64,000 nucleotides of DNA, from IMG/VR virus record IMGVR_UViG_3300021375_000017, positions 28,002-92,001 of that record; one strand, written 5' to 3'. The stretch comes from a virus. The position numbers were made by a program, and so were the translations under genes. Positions 8,613 through 28,802 of the stretch are shown here, piece by piece (the first letter of the stretch is position 1; each line of letters opens with the position of its first letter). The notes beneath the pieces are model-generated. The model was given only the letters and a program-made list of their open reading frames with translations. It ran no database searches and had not been told where the DNA came from.

Positions 8613-9299
8613 ATGACCATGGGCAAATATTATACTTATGCCTATTTGCGTGAAGATGGAACTCCTTATTATATCGGTAAAGGATTAAAAAACAGGAAAT
8701 CTAAAAAGCATTTTAGAAGAAATGGAAAAGTATTTTCTCCTCCATCAGAAGATAAAATAATTATTCTCAAACAGAATTTAACTGAAAAAGAAGCATTTAA
8801 GCACGAAATTTATATGATTTCCGTTTTGGGTAGAAAAGATTTGGGGACTGGTATTTTGAGAAATTTGACTGAAGGTGGTGAAGGGAGTAGTGGATATAAA
8901 CACTCCGATGAATTTAAATCTAAAATTAGAAAAGTTCAGAGTGGTAGAGTTATTTCCAATACAACTAAAGAAAAAATGAGAAATGCAAATCTTGGAAAAG
9001 TTTTATCTGATGAACATAAAAAAAAGATTGGAGAATCGCAAGGGGGGAAAGTTGTAAATGAGGAGGTTAGAAAAAAAATAAGTAATACACTAAAAGGAAA
9101 AAAACATAGTCCAGAAAGAATTAATAATATAAGAAAGGGAATGGGATGTGAAACTTATAAATTCATTTCCCCAGAAGGTAAAATAATTGAAGTTGATAAT
9201 ATGACGCAATTCTGCTATGATAGAAATCTACAGCAAAGTTGTATGTCAAACATCTGGAACAATAAAAGAAACTTTCATAAAGGATGGAAAAAAGCATAA
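8613..9299 (+). mobile_element. free-standing GIY-YIG-like homing endonuclease with NUMOD3-like repeats
   Basis: YYTYAYLREDGTPYYIGKG, NLTEGGEG, HS.E.K.KI repeats; AT-rich. Confidence 0.85.
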
Positions 9300-10216
9300 T
9301 GGACTTTTTATCAGATATTGTAAAAGAGATTGGAGATGACTTTACCAAACTTGCTGCCGACATCGATGACACTGAGACATATGTGGACACAGGTTCGTTC
9401 GTTCTTAACGCTCTTGTATCTGGGTCTATCCGTGGTGGTGTATCTGGGAATAAAATTACTGCAATTGCTGGCGAAAGTTCTACTGGAAAGACTTTCTTTT
9501 CACTCGCAGTGGTCAAGAACTTCTTGGATACTAATCCCGATGCATATTGCCTTTATTTTGATACTGAGGCAGCAGTTAATAAGTCACTACTAGTAAGTCG
9601 TGGCATTGATCTGAATCGACTAGTTGTTGTTAATGTCGTTACCATTGAGGAGTTTAGGAGTAAGGCTCTCAAGGCGGTAGACATGTATTCAAAAAAACCT
9701 GAAGATGAACGTAAACCTTGTATGTTTGTGTTAGATTCTTTAGGAATGCTTTCTACAGAGAAAGAAATCACTGATGCCCTCAATGAGAAACTTGTCCGTG
9801 ATATGACAAAATCTCAGTTGATTAAAGGGGCTTTCAGAATGTTGACTCTTAAATTGGGTCAAGCCAAAATACCAATGATTGTAACCAATCACACCTATGA
9901 TGTCATCGGAGCTTATGTTCCTACAAAGGAAATGGGTGGGGGTTGTTTAGTTGCGGGAACTAAGATACAAACAGAAAATGGTTCTATTCCTATTGAATCT
10001 ATTCAAGTTGGTGACAAAGTGAGAACTATGTTTGGTTATTCATCAGTTACTGACACTTTCCATTTCACCGATAAAGATGTTTATGAATTGGAATTGGAAG
10101 ATGGAGAAACTATTAGATGTTCTGGCGAACATAAGTTTTTAGTAGATACTGGAGATGGTTATGAATGGAAATCCGTTACTGAGTTATTACCTTCAGATAC
10201 TATCAAATCTATGTGA
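9299..10216 (+). CDS. uvsX: UvsX recombinase N-half fused to split intein N-fragment (IntN 9944-10213, 90 aa)
   Basis: Walker A GESSTGKT; ...KEMGGG|CLVAGTKI (block A) and CSGEHKF (block B); TAATG overlap at start. Confidence 0.93.
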   Translation: MDFLSDIVKEIGDDFTKLAADIDDTETYVDTGSFVLNALVSGSIRGGVSGNKITAIAGESSTGKTFFSLAVVKNFLDTNPDAYCLYFDTEAAVNKSLLVSRGIDLNRLVVVNVVTIEEFRSKALKAVDMYSKKPEDERKPCMFVLDSLGMLSTEKEITDALNEKLVRDMTKSQLIKGAFRMLTLKLGQAKIPMIVTNHTYDVIGAYVPTKEMGGGCLVAGTKIQTENGSIPIESIQVGDKVRTMFGYSSVTDTFHFTDKDVYELELEDGETIRCSGEHKFLVDTGDGYEWKSVTELLPSDTIKSM

Positions 10217-10221
10217 AAGTT

Positions 10222-10258
10222 GGTTCTGGACTAAATAATAATAATTGAGTCCAGAACC
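10222..10258 (+). promoter_or_regulatory. hairpin over the endonuclease translation start, with a late-promoter-like core in the loop
   Basis: GGTTCTGGACT...AGTCCAGAACC immediately before TTG; TAAATA inside. Confidence 0.6.
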
Positions 10259-10930
10259 TTGTTTTTATCCAATAAGTATACTGATTGTTATTTCCGTATT
10301 ATTAATAAGGCAAATCTTAGGAAACTTCCTCAAATTACTGAATGTCATCATATTATACCTAAATCATTAGGTGGAGGAGAAGAACCAGAAAACAAAGTAT
10401 ATCTAACACCAAGAGAACATTTTGTCTGTCATCATCTTCTTCTGAAGATGTTAGAGGGAAAATCAAAACAGAAAATGTGTTATGCTTTTTATAGAATGAA
10501 CTCCAGTAATAATGGAGTTAGGTGTGAAAATCTCAATTCTTATGATAGAATAAGAGAACACTACTCTCATCTCACTTCTGGAGTAAATAACCCATTTTAT
10601 GGGAAGGGGCATTTTGGATATTCTAACCCAATGTCCAAACCTGAGGTTCGGGAGAAACATAAACAAATAGTTTCTTCACCTGAACATAGAAAGATGATGA
10701 GTGATAAAATGTCTGGTGAAAATAATCCATTTTACGGAAGAACTCATTCAGATGAAACCAAGAAACATCTTTCTGAGTTGGCGTCTCAGAGAACAGGTGA
10801 AAACTCTTCCCGTTATGGGAAGAAACACAGACGAGTTGTTTGTGAACACTGCCAAAAAGAAATTACTTACCCAATGTATAAGAGGTGGCATGGAACGAAT
10901 TGTAAAGTCTATCAAGAAAATAAAGACTGA
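10259..10930 (+). mobile_element. HNH homing endonuclease with NUMOD3 repeats, inside split uvsX
   Basis: HHIIPKSLGG...N...LTPREH..CH; NNPFYG..HS.ETK repeats. Confidence 0.88.
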
Positions 10931-11366
10931 GGATGTTTATGACATCACAGTTGAAGGAGAACATCATTATATTCTTGGTAATGGTGTCGTGTCTCACAAT
11001 TCTGGCCTTAAGTATGCAGCGTCTACAATCATCTATCTCTCAAAGAAAAAGGAAAAGGATGGAACAGAAGTGGTCGGCAATCTTATCAAGGCTAAGACTG
11101 CTAAGTCGCGTTTAAGTAAAGAGAATAAAGATGTTACTATACGTCTCTATTACGATGAACGTGGTCTTGATAGGTATTACGGTCTCTTAGAACTTGGAGA
11201 ACTTGGTGGACTATGGAAAAACGTTGCAGGACGTTATGAGATGGATGGTAAGAAAGTCTATGCTAAGGCCATCCTGAAAGAACCTGAGACTTATTTTACA
11301 CCTGAAGTGATGGAAAAACTAGATGAAATCGCAAAAGAACAATTCTCTTATGGTTCGTCATTATGA
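10890..11366 (+). CDS. uvsX: split intein C-fragment (37 aa, 10890-11000) fused to UvsX C-half
   Basis: VYDITVEGEHHYILGNGVVSHN|SGLKYAAS (blocks F/G, Ser+1); continues KSR, LYYDERGLDRYYGL. Confidence 0.92.
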   Translation: MERIVKSIKKIKTEDVYDITVEGEHHYILGNGVVSHNSGLKYAASTIIYLSKKKEKDGTEVVGNLIKAKTAKSRLSKENKDVTIRLYYDERGLDRYYGLLELGELGGLWKNVAGRYEMDGKKVYAKAILKEPETYFTPEVMEKLDEIAKEQFSYGSSL

Positions 11367-11865
11367 TGTTGTTCCAGAGTCATACTGTAAAAAACTAATT
11401 GAGATATTTGAAAACTCCTCTAATCAGGAGTTTATCAATAATGATCACAAACCATGTTTCAGTCAGGTTAATCTGAGTAAAGAAAATCCTGAAATGGTCA
11501 GACAAATCATTCCCATTATTAAAGGTGTACATACTCTGTATAAGAAGGAAACCAAATCTTATTTTCTTCCAGAGTTAAATGCCCTTGAAGAACTTAGGAT
11601 TAAAAGATACCTTCCTAATGGTGAGGAAAGGTTTGATGAACATGTAGACGTGACTGACTATCCCTCATCAAGAAGGTCAGTTGCATTTTTATTTTATCTG
11701 AATACTAATGATGGTAATACAGTTTTTTCTAAACAGAAGTTGAACATTAAACCAAAGTGTGGTAGGGTAGTAGTATTCCCTCCTACATGGGAATATCCTC
11801 ATGCAAGACTCCCCCCAACAACTAGTAACAAATACATCATGAGTACATATATTCACTATGGATAA
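11350..11865 (+). CDS. 2OG-Fe(II) oxygenase
   Basis: HVD...FYLN...G.VVVFPP.W.YPH...KYI. Confidence 0.85.
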   Translation: MVRHYDVVPESYCKKLIEIFENSSNQEFINNDHKPCFSQVNLSKENPEMVRQIIPIIKGVHTLYKKETKSYFLPELNALEELRIKRYLPNGEERFDEHVDVTDYPSSRRSVAFLFYLNTNDGNTVFSKQKLNIKPKCGRVVVFPPTWEYPHARLPPTTSNKYIMSTYIHYG

Positions 11866-12490
11866 GGTTGAATTTTTAGTTCTGAAAAATCTAATACACA
11901 ATGAAAAATACTTGAGAAAGGTTCTTCCATTCATTAAAGAAGAATATTTTGATGATACTAAATATAAGGTAATCTTCGACGAGATCTCTACCTTTACTGC
12001 TGAGTATAACGAACTCCCTACAAAAGAGATTCTCAATATTGAGATTGAAAAGAGAAGAGATATTAATGAGGACTCTTATAAACAGATTTCTCATGTAGTT
12101 AATTGTCTTGAGGACGATGTTGTAGAGTTTGATTGGTTGGTTAACACTACTGAGAAGTGGTGTCGTGACCGTGCCATTTATCTTGCCTTGATTGAATCCA
12201 TTCAGATTGCTGATGGAGGAGATGTCAAGAAGGCACCAGATGCCATTCCATCTATTCTGTCTGATGCTCTGGCAGTTAGTTTTGACAACCATGTAGGACA
12301 TGATTACCTTGAAGATTATGAATCACGATACGAGTCTTATCACAGGAAGGAGGAGAGAATTGAATTCGATCTCGACTATTTTAACAAAATCACGAAAGGT
12401 GGGCTCCCTAACAAAACTCTTAACATCGCACTTGCTGGTTGCGTTCATCCAGAAACTAAAGTTAAAATTAGATTTAAGAAGATTTCTTGA
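11858..12490 (+). CDS. gp41: gp41 replicative helicase N-half fused to a 16-aa intein N-fragment (12440-12487)
   Basis: TKGGLPNKTLNIALAG|CVHPETKVKIRFKKIS*; break lies inside Walker A. Confidence 0.92.
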   Translation: MDKVEFLVLKNLIHNEKYLRKVLPFIKEEYFDDTKYKVIFDEISTFTAEYNELPTKEILNIEIEKRRDINEDSYKQISHVVNCLEDDVVEFDWLVNTTEKWCRDRAIYLALIESIQIADGGDVKKAPDAIPSILSDALAVSFDNHVGHDYLEDYESRYESYHRKEERIEFDLDYFNKITKGGLPNKTLNIALAGCVHPETKVKIRFKKIS

Positions 12491-13142
12491 TTATGGAATT
12501 TGGTGCTGGTTCTCCAGTTCCAAATTTCCATCCTTCGTTTAATTTAGTATCAATATTTTCTGGTAGTATTCTTTTCCATCCCTTTGTTCCTGGTAAGTAC
12601 ATTACCTTTTTTCCTTTATGTGCTTTACCTCCAAGAGATGCTCTTTGTTGTCTTCCTTGATTAGACGCCCAGTAATTGAATTCTTTAGATGCTCTTTGCT
12701 TTCCTCCAAAAGATGCTCTTTCCTTTCTACCTTCTTCTGTACTCCAGTAATAAAAATTTTTAATGTTATCTTTTAAATATTCTTGTTTTTGAGTTTCCAT
12801 TCCTTTGACCATCCATTCTTTTCTTTCATCTATTGGAACAGAAAAGAAACCAATCTTATTATCTCTACAAAATTCCCCAATTATTTTTCTATATTGTGGA
12901 GATAAGTTTGCTCCTAACATTTTCATAGACCTTAAGTCATTTGGATTTTTGTATATTTTCCATAACAAATAATGTGCTATGATATGTTCTCTAACATTTA
13001 GGTATGTAAGGTTACAATCATCATCTGTTCCTCCCATATGTTTAGGAACAACATGATGTTCGTGTAGTCCTGAATATTTTTTATAATCTTCTTTTCTTGA
13101 CTTATTGCCTTTGCATAAGTTAGAATAGATACGATCAAACAT
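12474..13142 (-). mobile_element. HNH homing endonuclease on the opposite strand, inside split gp41
   Basis: HEHHVVPKHMGG...NLTYL.VREH..AH; minus-strand TATAAATA at 13165-13172. Confidence 0.85.
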
Positions 13143-13176
13143 TCCCTGTCCCTGCTACTGCTATTATTTATATAAA

Positions 13177-14352
13177 ATGTGGATTGAAAAAGAAACAACA
13201 ATTGCTGAAATCAAAACATTACTTGATAATGGATATGAAGTAGAAGTTGATTCTCCCGATGGATATGTTCCAGTTAATTTCTTTATTAACAAAGGAATGT
13301 ATGATGAATATGTTTTGAGAATCGATGGCATTGATGAACTTATAAGATGCAATGCCAATCATTTATTTCAGACATCTTTGGGGTGGATGAGTGCATCGCA
13401 TCTTTATAAAAAATATAAAATAATGCATTTTTTAACCGAGAGTGGTTATAAACTTGGTAGTGTATTTAAAACAGGAAATCAAATACCTATTGTTGATATT
13501 AATGTAAATCATCCAAATCACAGGTATTATACTAATGGAGTTTCTTCTCATAATACTGGCGTCGGGAAATCTCTATTCATGTGCCATGTGGCTAGCTCCG
13601 TCTTGCTCCAAGGGAGGAACGTTCTCTACATTACAATGGAGATGGCAGAAGAGCGCATTGCTGAAAGAATTGATGCGAACCTCTTGAATGTAAATATCCA
13701 GGAAATTGTTGACCTTCCAAAACAAATGTTTGAAACAAAGGTTACAAACCTGGCACAAAAGACTCAAGGTCACCTAATTATTAAGGAGTATCCTACTGCC
13801 TCTGCTCATGCTGGACACTTCAAATCACTTCTTAATGAACTTGCACTTAAGAAGTCATTTCGACCTGATATTATTTTCATTGATTACCTTAATATATGTT
13901 CTTCCGAAAGATATCGCGGAAATAGCACTGTCAATTCATATTCATATATTAAAGCAATTGCTGAAGAACTTAGAGGACTTGCTGTTGAAGCAAACGTCCC
14001 TATCATATCTGCCACTCAGACCACTCGTTCTGGTTATGGTAGCTCTGACGTTGAGCTTACTGACACTAGTGAGTCCTTTGGTCTCCCTGCTACTGCTGAT
14101 CTTATGTTTGCCCTTATTTCGACTGAAGAGTTGGAATCGTTGGGACAAATACTTGTAAAGCAATTGAAGAATAGGTATAATGATTACTCTGTCCATAGAC
14201 GTTTTGTTGTTGGTATTGATCGTGCCAAGATGAGATTATATGATTGTGAACAGTCTGCACAGGATGACCTTCTTGACAATGGTAAGGAAGAAGAGTACAA
14301 TAATGATGAACAAGAAAAACCTAAAAAATCATTTAGTGGATTTAAATTTTAA
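13177..14352 (+). CDS. gp41: split intein C-fragment (126 aa, 13177-13554) fused to gp41 helicase C-half
   Basis: CNANHLF block B, IVDINV...YYTNGVSSHN|TGVGKS (Thr+1); IDYLN, SATQT, KNRY helicase motifs. Confidence 0.93.
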   Translation: MWIEKETTIAEIKTLLDNGYEVEVDSPDGYVPVNFFINKGMYDEYVLRIDGIDELIRCNANHLFQTSLGWMSASHLYKKYKIMHFLTESGYKLGSVFKTGNQIPIVDINVNHPNHRYYTNGVSSHNTGVGKSLFMCHVASSVLLQGRNVLYITMEMAEERIAERIDANLLNVNIQEIVDLPKQMFETKVTNLAQKTQGHLIIKEYPTASAHAGHFKSLLNELALKKSFRPDIIFIDYLNICSSERYRGNSTVNSYSYIKAIAEELRGLAVEANVPIISATQTTRSGYGSSDVELTDTSESFGLPATADLMFALISTEELESLGQILVKQLKNRYNDYSVHRRFVVGIDRAKMRLYDCEQSAQDDLLDNGKEEEYNNDEQEKPKKSFSGFKF

Positions 14353-14756
14353 TGACTGTAAATACTGAAGCATATCTTGAATTTGTCAATGCCGTCACCT
14401 CACAACAAAGTAAAGATCACGAAGCATTCCTCTATCGTCTTCAAGAATTGGAAGGCCAAGAGTTTCCTACCGAGCGACTGTTTACTGCTGCTGTAGGAAT
14501 GTCTGCTGAGGCAGGTGAGTTTACTGAAGTTGTCAAGAAGATCGTCTTCCAAGGTAAACCAGTAAATGAAGAAAACTTATTTCATCTGAAACGTGAACTT
14601 GGTGATATTATGTGGTATGTTGCTCAAGCGTGTATGGGTCTTGATACGACCATTGATGAAATTATTGAGATGAATGTTGAGAAACTGAAGTCTCGTTATC
14701 CTGGTGGAGAATTTTCCGTAAAACATTCCGAAGTCCGAAAGGAAGGTGATGTATGA
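14352..14756 (+). CDS. mazG: MazG-like NTP pyrophosphohydrolase
   Basis: EAGEF.E..KK...ELGDIMWY. Confidence 0.92.
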   Translation: MTVNTEAYLEFVNAVTSQQSKDHEAFLYRLQELEGQEFPTERLFTAAVGMSAEAGEFTEVVKKIVFQGKPVNEENLFHLKRELGDIMWYVAQACMGLDTTIDEIIEMNVEKLKSRYPGGEFSVKHSEVRKEGDV

Positions 14757-15448
14757 CCTACGACTTCTCATTTGCACATTCACCTGAAGGATTTGATAAT
14801 CATATCAACGATAGTATTCGTGGATATTCAAACCTCCTAGAAGATACTGTATCGTTCTCTCGATACTTTGTGGAGGATCATACTAAAGTTGTTGATGTTG
14901 GATGTTCAACTGGTAAACTTACCAAGATGATTATTGACAACAATCCTAATCGTCAGTACGCACATTATGTGGGTGTAGAACTTGCTGGTAGTTTTTATGA
15001 TGATCTTGAGGAACGTCATATAGAGGTTCGTAAAGAATACCCTGGTGCATTGTTAGAATGGGTTCGTGGTAATGTCACTAACTATGAGTTCAAGAACTGT
15101 TCTCTAGTAACATCACTGTTTACTCTACAGTTTATGCCCAAGACTACCAGACAAGATACGATCAATAAGATCTATAATGGTCTCAATGAAGGTGGTGCAT
15201 TTATCTTTGCTGAGAAGTTGATGTGTGAGAATGCATTCTTTCAAGAACTTCTTACCTTTAATCATTATGATTACAAGAGAAAGACTTTCAGTGCAGAACA
15301 AATCATGGATAAGGAGAAACAACTTCGTGATATGTTGAAACCTAATACATGGTCTGAACTAAGAGATATGGTGATGACTGCGGGGTTCAAAGACTGTCAG
15401 ATCTTCTGGAGAAACCATCAGTTCGTTGGAGTTATTGCAATTAAGTAA
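14753..15448 (+). CDS. cmoA: CmoA-like carboxy-SAM synthase (class I SAM fold)
   Basis: F.F.....FD.HI..SI.GYSN, DVGCSTG, FTLQF, GG.FI.AEK, typical of CmoA. Confidence 0.75.
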   Translation: MTYDFSFAHSPEGFDNHINDSIRGYSNLLEDTVSFSRYFVEDHTKVVDVGCSTGKLTKMIIDNNPNRQYAHYVGVELAGSFYDDLEERHIEVRKEYPGALLEWVRGNVTNYEFKNCSLVTSLFTLQFMPKTTRQDTINKIYNGLNEGGAFIFAEKLMCENAFFQELLTFNHYDYKRKTFSAEQIMDKEKQLRDMLKPNTWSELRDMVMTAGFKDCQIFWRNHQFVGVIAIK

Positions 15449-26505: not shown

Positions 26506-28802
26506 GCAACGGTATCAAGGTACAAAAAAGAAATGGTGATGTAGAGAAACTAGACCTGGACAAAATGCATCTCATGGTTGATGAGGCATGTAAAGATCTT
26601 GCAGGAGTCTCAGCATCACAGGTAGAGATGACATCTGGTATTCAGTTCTACGATGGTATTACTACTGATGAGATTCAAGATATTCTTATCCGTAGTGCCA
26701 GTGACCTGATTGATTTGGAACATCCAAACTATCAGTTCGTTGCTGCACGTCTTCTTCTATTCACTCTTCGTAAGCAAGTCTTTCAGAATAAGAAAGGTGA
26801 TGCTCCTGGGTTGAGGGAACATATTGAGAAGTGTGCATATAATGATCATTACGATAAACAGATTTTTGAAAAGTATTCTCTTGAAGAGATTGATAAGGTA
26901 AATACTTTTATCTACCATGATCGTGACATGTTGTTTACCTATGCTGGTCTTCGCCAGGTAGTTGACAAGTATCTGGTTCAAGATCGTAGTACTGGGGAAG
27001 TGTTTGAGACCCCTCAGTTCATGTATATCATGATTGCCCTTACCATCTTTCAGGATTACCCAAAGGAGACCCGTCTTGACTACGTCAAAAGATACTACAA
27101 CGCAATCTCCAAACATCGACTCAACATCCCCACACCAATCATGGCGGGAGTTAGAACACCACTTAGACAATTTGCTTCTTGTGTTCTTGTTGATGTTGAT
27201 GACTCCCTCGATTCTATCTTTAGCTCTGATATGGCTATTGGCAGATACGTTGCACAAAGGGCGGGTATCGGTATCAACGCAGGTAGAATCCGTGGCATCA
27301 ACGCTAAAATCAGAGGTGGAGAAGTGCAGCACACAGGTGTTGTTCCTTTCCTTAAAAAGTTTGAATCAACTGTACGATGCTGCACGCAAAATGGGATTCG
27401 TGGTGGATCAGCAACAGTCCACTTCCCCATCTGGCACCAAGAAATAGAAGATATTATTGTTCTCAAGAACAATAAGGGTACAGAAGACAACCGAGTGAGG
27501 AAACTTGACTACTCAATCCAAATTTCAAAGATTTTCTACGAACGTTTCATTGCGAATGGAGAGATTAGCTTATTCTCACCGCATGACGTACCGGGCTTGT
27601 ATGATTCCTTTGGTACTGATAGGTTCGATGACCTATATGTTGGTTTTGAACGAGATGAGTCTATTCCAAGAAAGACTATCGGAGCACAAGAACTCTTTCT
27701 AGATCTTCTGAAAGAGAGAGCAGAGACTGGTCGTATCTACATTATGAATATCGACCACTGTAATAGTCACTCTTCCTTCAAGGACAAGGTGAACATGAGT
27801 AACCTGTGTCAAGAGATTACACTTCCGACAGACCCTATCAATCACATTGATGATGTTGTTGGTGAGATTGCTTTATGTATTCTGTCTGCAGTTAATGTGG
27901 GCAAGATTCGTTCTGATGAGGAACTTGAAGATTTGTGTGATCTTTCAGTCCGTGGTTTAGAAGAACTGATAGACTATCAGGAGTATCCTGTAAGGGCCGC
28001 AGAGATAGCTACAAAGGCCCGTAGATCCCTTGGTGTAGGTTTCATTGGTCTTGCACACTATCTGGCTAAACTGGGGCATAATTACGACAGTCAAGAGGCA
28101 TGGGATGCCGTTCATCAACTCTCAGAATCCTTCCAGTATTATCTTTTGAAGTCTTCAAATGAACTTGCTAAAGAAAAAGGACATTGTGAATATTTTGGTA
28201 GAACGAAGTATGCAGACGGGATCCTTCCTATTGACACATACAAGAAGGACGTGGACGAAGTTTCATCACAGGAGTTACAGCATGATTGGGAGAGTCTACG
28301 ATCATCTATATCCACCCACGGACTTAGACACTCAACACTGTCTGCTCAGATGCCATCAGAAAGCAGTTCCGTTGTGTCAAACGCAACAAATGGAATTGAG
28401 CCACCTAGAGACTATCTGTCCATTAAGAAAAGCAAAAAGGGTCCGCTTAAGCAGATTGTTCCACAGTATGGTTCTCTTAAAAACAACTATACTCTTCTTT
28501 GGGACATGGCTTCTAATCGTGGTTATATCAATGTTGTAGCAGTGATGCAGAAGTTCTTTGACCAAGCCATCAGTGGTAACTGGTCTTATAACCCTGAGAA
28601 CTACCCTGATAATGAGGTTCCAGTCTCTGTAATGGCACAAGACTTCTTGACAACATACAAGTTGGGATGGAAGACTAGTTATTATCAGAATACATATGAT
28701 ATCAAGACTGATGAAGCACCAGAAGAAACTCCCGAACTTCAAAATCTCCTAAATGATATTATGGAGTCCGATGAGGACGATTGTGAAAGCTGTAAAATTT
28801 AG
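26502..28802 (+). CDS. nrdA: class Ia ribonucleotide reductase alpha subunit
   Basis: ATP cone, PTP.MAG, SNLCQE, C-terminal CESC. Confidence 0.98.
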   Translation: MSNGIKVQKRNGDVEKLDLDKMHLMVDEACKDLAGVSASQVEMTSGIQFYDGITTDEIQDILIRSASDLIDLEHPNYQFVAARLLLFTLRKQVFQNKKGDAPGLREHIEKCAYNDHYDKQIFEKYSLEEIDKVNTFIYHDRDMLFTYAGLRQVVDKYLVQDRSTGEVFETPQFMYIMIALTIFQDYPKETRLDYVKRYYNAISKHRLNIPTPIMAGVRTPLRQFASCVLVDVDDSLDSIFSSDMAIGRYVAQRAGIGINAGRIRGINAKIRGGEVQHTGVVPFLKKFESTVRCCTQNGIRGGSATVHFPIWHQEIEDIIVLKNNKGTEDNRVRKLDYSIQISKIFYERFIANGEISLFSPHDVPGLYDSFGTDRFDDLYVGFERDESIPRKTIGAQELFLDLLKERAETGRIYIMNIDHCNSHSSFKDKVNMSNLCQEITLPTDPINHIDDVVGEIALCILSAVNVGKIRSDEELEDLCDLSVRGLEELIDYQEYPVRAAEIATKARRSLGVGFIGLAHYLAKLGHNYDSQEAWDAVHQLSESFQYYLLKSSNELAKEKGHCEYFGRTKYADGILPIDTYKKDVDEVSSQELQHDWESLRSSISTHGLRHSTLSAQMPSESSSVVSNATNGIEPPRDYLSIKKSKKGPLKQIVPQYGSLKNNYTLLWDMASNRGYINVVAVMQKFFDQAISGNWSYNPENYPDNEVPVSVMAQDFLTTYKLGWKTSYYQNTYDIKTDEAPEETPELQNLLNDIMESDEDDCESCKI

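Follow-up and report, generated by a model that had tools for sequence, protein, structure and literature searches.

A VidaL-family intein split by an antisense HNH cassette in the Walker A codons of a cyanophage gp41 helicase gene

How an intact gp41 helicase could be obtained from a gene that is broken within its Walker A codons is the question raised by a locus in the IMG/VR virus record IMGVR_UViG_3300021375_000017. The stretch analyzed, referred to below as the window, comprises 64,000 nucleotides (nt) at positions 28,002 to 92,001 of this record, which is 92 kb long and ~48% complete and holds one DnaB_C-type helicase gene. The phage is a marine T4-like cyanomyovirus, and its gene order, namely, gp43 polymerase, UvsX, 2-oxoglutarate (2OG)-Fe(II) oxygenase, gp41, and MazG, is the synteny of T4-like cyanomyoviruses, e.g., Synechococcus phage S-BM3. 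In both the listing of open reading frames (ORFs) and the raw sequence, gp41 is coded as two same-strand ORFs with an antisense HNH gene between them. The interrupting element is assigned by homology, fold, and split position to the VidaL family as a class-1, cysteine-dependent mini-intein split at the site termed S1. Very probably, it is a mobile intein that was fractured by the antisense HNH cassette and that trans-splices the helicase. The locus contains the following features (aa, amino acids; IntN and IntC, N- and C-terminal intein fragments).

11858-12490, plus strand: gp41 N-half ORF, 210 aa (194 extein and 16 IntN), ending with TGA
11858..12439, plus strand: gp41 N-extein, 194 aa, ending ..KTLNIALAG and pairing end-to-end with residues 1-194 of intein-free S-BM3 gp41
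12440..12490, plus strand: IntN and TGA stop (12488-12490), 16 aa, CVHPETKVKIRFKKIS
12474..13142, minus strand: HNH homing endonuclease gene, 222 aa, with its stop codon within IntN codons 12-13
12490..13178, no strand assigned: inserted cassette, 689 bp, with bounds set against unsplit allele L010
13097..13126, plus strand: candidate sigma-70-like promoter, TTGACT-18-TAGAAT, 10/12 matches
13165..13172, minus strand: TATAAATA, T4-type late-promoter consensus, 22 nt upstream of the HNH ATG
13177-14352, plus strand: C-half ORF, 391 aa (126 intein and 265 extein)
13177..13554, plus strand: IntC, 126 aa, MWIEKE...CNANH...HPNHRYYTNGVSSHN
13555..14352, plus strand: gp41 C-extein and stop, 265 aa, opening T+1 GVGKS (Walker A); sequence directly after IntC, TGVGKSLFMCHV..

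The intein-free gp41 of S-BM3 reads ..KTLNIALAG/TGVGKSLFMCHVASSVLLQGRNVLYITMEMAEERIAERIDANLLNVNIQEI.. across the junction (a slash marks a splice junction or split site throughout), with 0 residues lost or added in comparison with the two window halves, and the aligned part of the C-half, which is 83% identical to S-BM3 gp41, begins exactly at TGVGKS. Removal of the 16 + 126 residues and joining of Gly194 to Thr+1 would thus rebuild the Walker A loop. A first-pass annotation of this DNA had predicted such a reconstruction, and the S-BM3 sequence, NIALAG-TGVGKS at the same junction, agrees with it. The same annotation described an N-half ending LAG/CVHPETKVKIRFKKIS before its stop, an antisense HNH gene between the halves, and a C-half that opens with 126 intein residues, with block B as CNANH and the end as SHN/T, and each of these was found where it had been placed. 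The N-extein has a weak Pfam DnaB N-terminal match, and the C-extein matches Pfam DnaB_C (E = 1e-16). Megablast of the locus against 50,697 phage records matched the C-extein alone (305 records), and the intein was covered by none, which implies that cultured cyanophages among these records do not have it, unless the record of the window itself was masked. No terminator-like sites were found between the gp41 halves, and co-transcription of both is thus plausible.

The closest characterized relative of the element is VidaL, a natural, cysteine-dependent, atypically split intein of the S1 type from Lake Vida metagenomes (PDB 6VGV/6VGW; Neugebauer et al. 2017 and Burton et al. 2020, as cited in PMC13014065). 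In a phmmer search of PDB sequences, the window IntC matched VidaL chain 6vgv_A over residues 4-125 (E = 3.4e-11), and the unsplit allele matched VidaL over residues 5-141 (E = 3.2e-12). The IntC match, together with the exact S-BM3 junction, excludes chance resemblance. Unsplit allele L010 (L010:3950-4375) is 97 to 98% identical to the window intein, and the structure model (AlphaFold2, 34-row alignment) was made on this allele. The model has a HINT fold with a predicted local distance difference test score of 97.3 and a predicted template modeling (TM) score of 0.88. Its best Foldseek match in the PDB is VidaL 6VGV (TM score, 0.89; root mean square deviation [rmsd], 1.4 Å; 30% identity), and the next matches, all of them inteins at TM scores of ~0.6-0.75, are Mtu RecA, gp41-1, DnaB, NrdJ-1, Npu DnaE, and PolB16, with PolB16 recorded as a distant structural match (TM score, 0.58).

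The position of the split also coincides with that of VidaL, whose IntN can be aligned with that of the window and follows the extein as ESG/CLPKEAVVQIRLTKKG and whose IntC opens with MIEEKKVTVQEL (sequence from the PMC10264447 supplement). In the HMMER alignment, G16/M17 of VidaL stands opposite S16/W17 of the unsplit allele, which in the window has become S16, a stop, and M17. The split point in the model lies in the loop of residues 14-18, between strands 7-13 and 19-24, and site S1 is given for VidaL and PolB16 as “immediately following beta-strand 2” (PMC13014065). A HINT fold, sequence homology, an S1 split with a separate IntN ORF, and the class-1 catalytic set (C1, H62 of IntC in CNANH, H125, N126, and T+1, all present) are those of VidaL-type inteins, while the AceL/GOS-TerL type, split at S2, was not matched. 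The atypical split intein proposed in the first-pass annotation is upheld by this comparison with the cataloged types. Neither IntC nor the 142-aa unsplit allele was recognized as an intein by Pfam, and routine annotation would list such helicases as two unrelated genes. Some homologues do match PF14890; these matches are owed to a second intein, gp41-1, and not to the VidaL-type one. Identity of the window element with gp41-1 itself was rejected: the gp41-1 site (..TRSGY/.., position 356, with an IntN of ~88 aa starting CLDLKTQ) is uninterrupted in the window, where the C-extein runs unbroken through ..TTRSGYGSSDVEL.., the gp41-1 insertion site.

The IntC copies compared show no variation (74/74) in the Cys, Asn, and His of block B, in the motif H-x-N-H-R-Y, or in the terminal S-S-H-N, and Cys1 is present in every IntN read. 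Thr, named earlier as the +1 nucleophile, begins every C-extein examined, and its combination with Cys1 is an ordinary pairing found in about 12% of inteins (PMC11766414). Ratios of nonsynonymous to synonymous divergence (dN/dS; simple pairwise Nei-Gojobori estimates for pairs with 0.05 < dS < 2) are 0.26 for IntC, 0.14-0.24 for the HNH gene, and 0.09-0.15 for the exteins, which points to purifying selection on both IntC and the HNH gene. IntN is basic, as had been noted, with a net charge of +4 versus -4 for IntC and -8 for the first 63 residues of IntC; these complementary charges would fit electrostatic steering between the fragments, as for other split inteins (PMC2677866). Invariant catalytic residues, purifying selection, and charge together argue strongly against a pseudogene and favor active class-1 trans-splicing, with a chemistry modeled on that of VidaL.

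Protein trans-splicing of the gp41 halves is accordingly a prediction from homology and conservation. The antisense HNH cassette would have broken the intein frame in the loop after the second beta-strand (S1), leaving two polypeptides, gp41N(194)-IntN(16) and IntC(126)-gp41C(265). By homology with VidaL, the basic 16-residue IntN hairpin would dock into the acidic, near-complete IntC and complete the HINT fold. An N-S acyl shift at Cys1 would be followed by attack of Thr+1 on the thioester and by cyclization of Asn142, aided by His141, and an O-N shift would finally give intact gp41 with the P-loop ..IALAG-TGVGKS... Late expression of the HNH protein, with TATAAATA as its own promoter, is probable, and the enzyme may cut alleles without the cassette or without the whole element. 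Such cutting would account for horizontal spread of the intein and HNH gene among cyanophage gp41 genes.

Several points weigh against this mechanism. Splicing of the window intein itself is deduced from its relatives, and VidaL has Ser+1 and UvsX exteins, whereas Thr+1 and helicase exteins are found here. In place of the Thr of most inteins, block B (N-x-x-H) carries an Asn, which is invariant in 74/74 copies. The record is incomplete, so a second helicase could lie elsewhere, and HNH insertions can be destructive; the HNH gene might thus have landed in the intein and broken it, with the phage using another helicase of its own or of its host and the halves decaying as pseudogenes. Such an outcome is very improbable given that both halves are intact ORFs in ~60 independent loci, with the dN/dS values of exteins and IntC as above, that all catalytic intein residues are invariant, and that split alleles without the HNH gene still hold the stop/start arrangement and both ORFs. 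In addition, gp41 is generally known to be essential in T4-like phages.

It is highly unlikely that the halves associate through the intein fragments without ligation, the intein serving only as a noncovalent dimerization module. Although split-intein fragments bind each other tightly and certain split proteins function unligated, the break here is inside the P-loop, and 142 intein residues would stay wedged in the ATP site. Cys1, the block-B His, His141, Asn142, and Thr+1 are, moreover, universally kept, a pattern to be expected only where the chemistry is in use, and the homologue VidaL trans-splices with a half-life of ~1 min (as cited in PMC13014065). Joining at the RNA or translational level across the 689-bp insert, by an intron, RNA trans-splicing, or ribosomal bypass, would make the intein-like residues incidental and is scarcely credible, even though group I introns are known from T4-like phages, as is one case of translational bypass (gene 60). 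No Rfam match was found in 9000-15000 on either strand at E <= 1, the insert codes for a conserved antisense protein, and both intein parts are protein coding and under purifying selection. Removal of the insert alone would also leave a full 142-residue intein still needing to be spliced, as in the natural unsplit alleles.

For a fractured, trans-splicing intein, the manner of the fracture can be followed at the base-pair level. The unsplit allele L010 reads ..AAG ATT TCT TGG TGG ATT GAA.. and the window reads ..AAG ATT TCT TGA-TTATGG...(HNH)...TATAAA-ATG TGG ATT GAA.., with the cassette sitting between bases 2 and 3 of one Trp codon (TG/A...AT/G). A TGA stop arises with the first base of the cassette and an ATG start with its last two, and the Trp codon thereby becomes a stop plus a start; a free-standing endonuclease gene can in this way fracture an intein at a noncanonical site. 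Microhomology was looked for at the cassette ends, and none was found. The cassette supplies no stop codon for the HNH ORF, which ends in IntN codons 12-13, with its 3' end overlapping the N-half by 17 nt. Its product matches PHROG 655, homing endonuclease (E = 9e-16), and, weakly, Pfam HNH (E = 0.013), and the gene is kept at ~220 aa in ~55 loci. The GC content is 32% in the cassette, 27-32% in the cassette plus intein, and 37-39% in the exteins.

TATAAATA occurs in 10 copies in the window versus 3.8 expected, of which 9 are on the plus strand, and the sole minus-strand copy fronts the antisense HNH gene. The 35 nt upstream of the IntC ATG, around TATAAATA, are near-invariant across loci, and this copy is a putative late promoter of the HNH gene. 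The candidate sigma-70-like promoter falls within the HNH coding region, ~50 nt before the IntC start, and offers only a weak lead; the scan for such sites was not enriched over shuffles.

Relatives of the intein are numerous. IntC has 594 matches (E <= 1e-3) in a collection of 5.8 billion proteins, most of them IntC-gp41C proteins of 374-393 aa and a few of them unsplit precursors of 594-600 aa that read ..IALAG/CVHPETKVKIRFRKISWWIEKE... A search of cluster representatives gave 229 clusters at 50% identity, with the intein at the extreme N terminus (split) in at least 30 of them and internal (unsplit) in others; the host proteins are gp41-like helicases (SHN/T[GN]VGKS), UvsX/RecA (SHN/SGKS), and other P-loop proteins. 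Short IntN fragments had been called rare in the first-pass annotation, and this holds among characterized inteins, where about five “atypically split” ones are described (PMC11923092), but not in marine viromes, in view of the 594 proteins above and 76 IMG/VR loci with close relatives. VidaL-family split inteins with a short IntN are common in nature. The allele states at the 76 loci are as follows.

Unsplit: 6 loci (L008-L013)
Split, only an antisense HNH gene of ~220 aa: ~36 loci
Split, HNH gene plus, between it and IntN, an extra ORF on the sense strand (100-260 aa): 18 loci (L015, L017, L018, L022-L026, L028, L029, L031, L034, L036, L039, L041, L045, L047, L064)
Split, HNH homologue on the sense strand: 1 locus (L069)
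Split, a different gene in the gap: 2 loci (L030, L038)
Split, no gene in the gap: 4 loci (L043, L044, L048, L063)
Remaining IMG/VR loci: cut by contig ends

Split alleles with an antisense HNH gene number about 56 in all. The window has no extra sense-strand ORF of the kind listed; among these ORFs, PHROG 3708, a family of unknown function, is matched by several, and a metallo-protease PHROG is matched weakly by one. The four split alleles without an HNH gene carry three different deletion scars. The left cassette end is kept in two of them (L043:1421-1500 and L044:158-240), in which IntC starts MEFIEKE from a cassette remnant, while the frames overlap in L048:89-150 and a TAATG stop-start overlap is present in L063:3951-4010. 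Judged from these scars, the HNH gene was lost at least three times independently with the intein still split. The pattern C[VI]HP[ED]T.[VI][KR]IR[FMY].. closes the N-half in ~50 related loci that cover that part, and IntN length ranges from 14 to 20 residues across loci. The 14-residue form (CVHPETKVKIRF[RK]K and a stop; L028:2853-2897 and L045:2853-2897) compares with the 15-aa fragment of PolB16, which was called “record-short” (PMC13014065).

The intein and its endonuclease gene have a history different from that of gp41: IntC and HNH have diverged at synonymous sites by 0.53 and 0.68, respectively, versus ~1.4 for both exteins. Nucleotide differences in three pairs of loci illustrate this further.

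L003 versus L004: IntC, 0%; HNH, 3.9%; N-extein, 34%; C-extein, 19%
Window versus L003: IntC, 2.6%; HNH, 8.3%; N-extein, 32%; C-extein, 20%
L049 versus L050: IntC, 1.1%; HNH, 40%; N-extein, 21%; C-extein, 23%

Near-identical IntC and HNH sequences in diverged gp41 genes, as in the first two pairs, indicate that the intein and HNH gene moved recently as a unit between helicase genes. In the third pair, a similar IntC with HNH genes 40% apart indicates that endonuclease genes were exchanged inside a resident intein. On these comparisons, the element is mobile and is spreading horizontally among cyanophage gp41 genes. The HNH replacement comparison of L049 and L050 also takes in L051, L053, and L057.

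In the IntC tree, which was rooted at the midpoint only, the six unsplit alleles form one clade (support of 88 in the Shimodaira-Hasegawa-like approximate likelihood ratio test [SH-aLRT]). Together with the window and four further split alleles, this clade makes up a group with full support, which in turn is nested among split alleles. Given midpoint rooting, the nesting suggests that the unsplit form may be derived by re-fusion, and co-conversion during homing could give the same nesting. It is possible, although doubtful, that the unsplit alleles are re-fused and the 14-residue IntNs are active, in which case splitting at S1 would be reversible and a natural IntN would fall below the published 15-residue record. 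The lineage would then be a natural experiment in intein splitting and rejoining, with matched cis and trans pairs for mechanistic work.

The window intein is a further member of the known VidaL family, and its value is mainly practical. It resembles VidaL in sequence (~30% identity, E = 3.4e-11), in fold (TM score, 0.89; rmsd, 1.4 Å), and in having a basic IntN of 16 aa (C-x-P-x-E/T-x-V-x-I-R-x-x-K-K-x) and an IntC that begins M-[IW]-E-[EK]-K and is ~125 aa long. Both are split at the same aligned residue, have Cys at block B:6, HPNHRYY in block F, and a terminal SHN, and are inserted in the P-loop of a phage ATPase. In contrast, the host protein here is the gp41 helicase (G/TGVGKS), whereas VidaL in the literature has UvsX-type exteins (ESG/SGK). 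Thr+1 replaces the Ser+1 of VidaL, block B is N-A-N-H rather than A-F-N-H, the window intein comes from a temperate marine cyanophage and VidaL from Antarctic brine, and ~70% of residues differ. The 2017 paper that introduced VidaL reportedly names a “VidaL T4Lh”, possibly a T4-like helicase intein; if so, a helicase host is already precedented. Other short-IntN inteins are less similar: the natural split PolB16 OarG intein has a 15-aa IntN but is cysteine-less, with Ser1 (PMC10189870), and the AceL/GOS TerL inteins have a natural short IntN of 25-37 aa but their split is the S2 one, which follows the first helix (PMC13014065).

Relatives of IntC are also present in UvsX of the Pseudomonas phage PA5oct group and Salicola phage SCTP-2, at 32-36% identity (35.6% for PA5oct) by tblastn against phage genomes. 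In PA5oct, UvsX is likewise split: an 82-aa N-half ends ..FAGESG/CLPETAKVKIRLSKKQS before its stop and is followed by a 478-aa ORF and then by IntC-UvsX, whereas SCTP-2 UvsX has the same intein type unsplit. Both differ from the window in their UvsX host, in an insertion two residues nearer the P-loop GKS, and in Ser+1, and the gap gene of PA5oct is the 478-aa sense-strand ORF, in contrast to the antisense HNH gene of the window. In the PA5oct genome (L001, NC_071039.1 134722-137728), gp274, annotated as “UvsX-like recombinase,” opens with a 127-aa IntC, and gp276, an 82-aa “hypothetical protein,” is the UvsX N-extein plus a 17-aa IntN. The composition of these two proteins indicates that a cultured jumbo phage bears an unannotated VidaL-type split intein.

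The layout of the locus is that of the “fractured genes” of Dassa et al. 2009 (PMC2677866), in which an essential phage DNA metabolism gene is divided into same-strand halves, each with a split-intein part, with a free-standing endonuclease gene and a T4 late-promoter-like element between them; here the layout recurs in ~55 loci. The cyanophage gp41-1 to gp41-7 loci of that study share the neighbors UvsX, 2OG oxygenase, and gp41, and gp41-7 is a split allele without a homing endonuclease gene (PMC2677866). Although the layout agrees, the window locus departs from those loci in its split site, which is not the canonical one, and in its endonuclease, which is neither GIY-YIG nor Vsr-like. The earlier inteins have the canonical endonuclease-domain split, with an IntN of ~88 aa and an IntC of ~38 aa, at gp41 position 356, whereas the window intein is split at S1 and lies in Walker A. 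The endonucleases described there are of GIY-YIG or Vsr-like type (PMC2677866), whereas that of the window is an antisense HNH enzyme of PHROG 655. Both the Walker A intein and the gp41-1 split intein (..TRSGY/CLDLKTQVQTQQG..) occur in P0005, P0009, and P0018 and at loci L033, L042, and L078. With both inteins in one gp41, the helicase is in three pieces, and its assembly would take two trans-splicing reactions orthogonal to each other; P0009 combines an unsplit first intein with a split second one.

An IntN of a size suited to synthesis is prized for protein semisynthesis, and few natural ones have been characterized. The window and its relatives offer a mesophilic marine relative of VidaL with Thr+1, other exteins, hundreds of natural variants, some with 14-aa IntNs, and near-isogenic unsplit partners, in an element seen still spreading among cyanophage helicase genes.

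UvsX of the window (9284-11366) is also fractured, by a canonical split intein. Its N-half (9284-10216) ends ..MGGG/CLVAGTKIQ.. with an IntN of ~90 aa, a sense-strand HNH+NUMOD3 endonuclease gene (10259-10930; PHROG 655, E = 1e-43) occupies the gap, and the 37-aa IntC has its ATG at 10890 and ends ..GNGVVSHN/SGLKY. The two HNH proteins of the window have only the catalytic core in common (46% over 35 aa). The canonical intein in UvsX and the VidaL-type intein in gp41 amount to two different split inteins in adjacent replication/recombination genes, and their presence in one phage makes them a candidate orthogonal set. The 228-aa ORF between gp43 and UvsX (8613-9299) has a start resembling GIY-YIG (..YYIGKG..) together with NUMOD3 repeats (Pfam E = 3e-9), and it would probably be the third free-standing homing endonuclease gene in a span of 5 kb.

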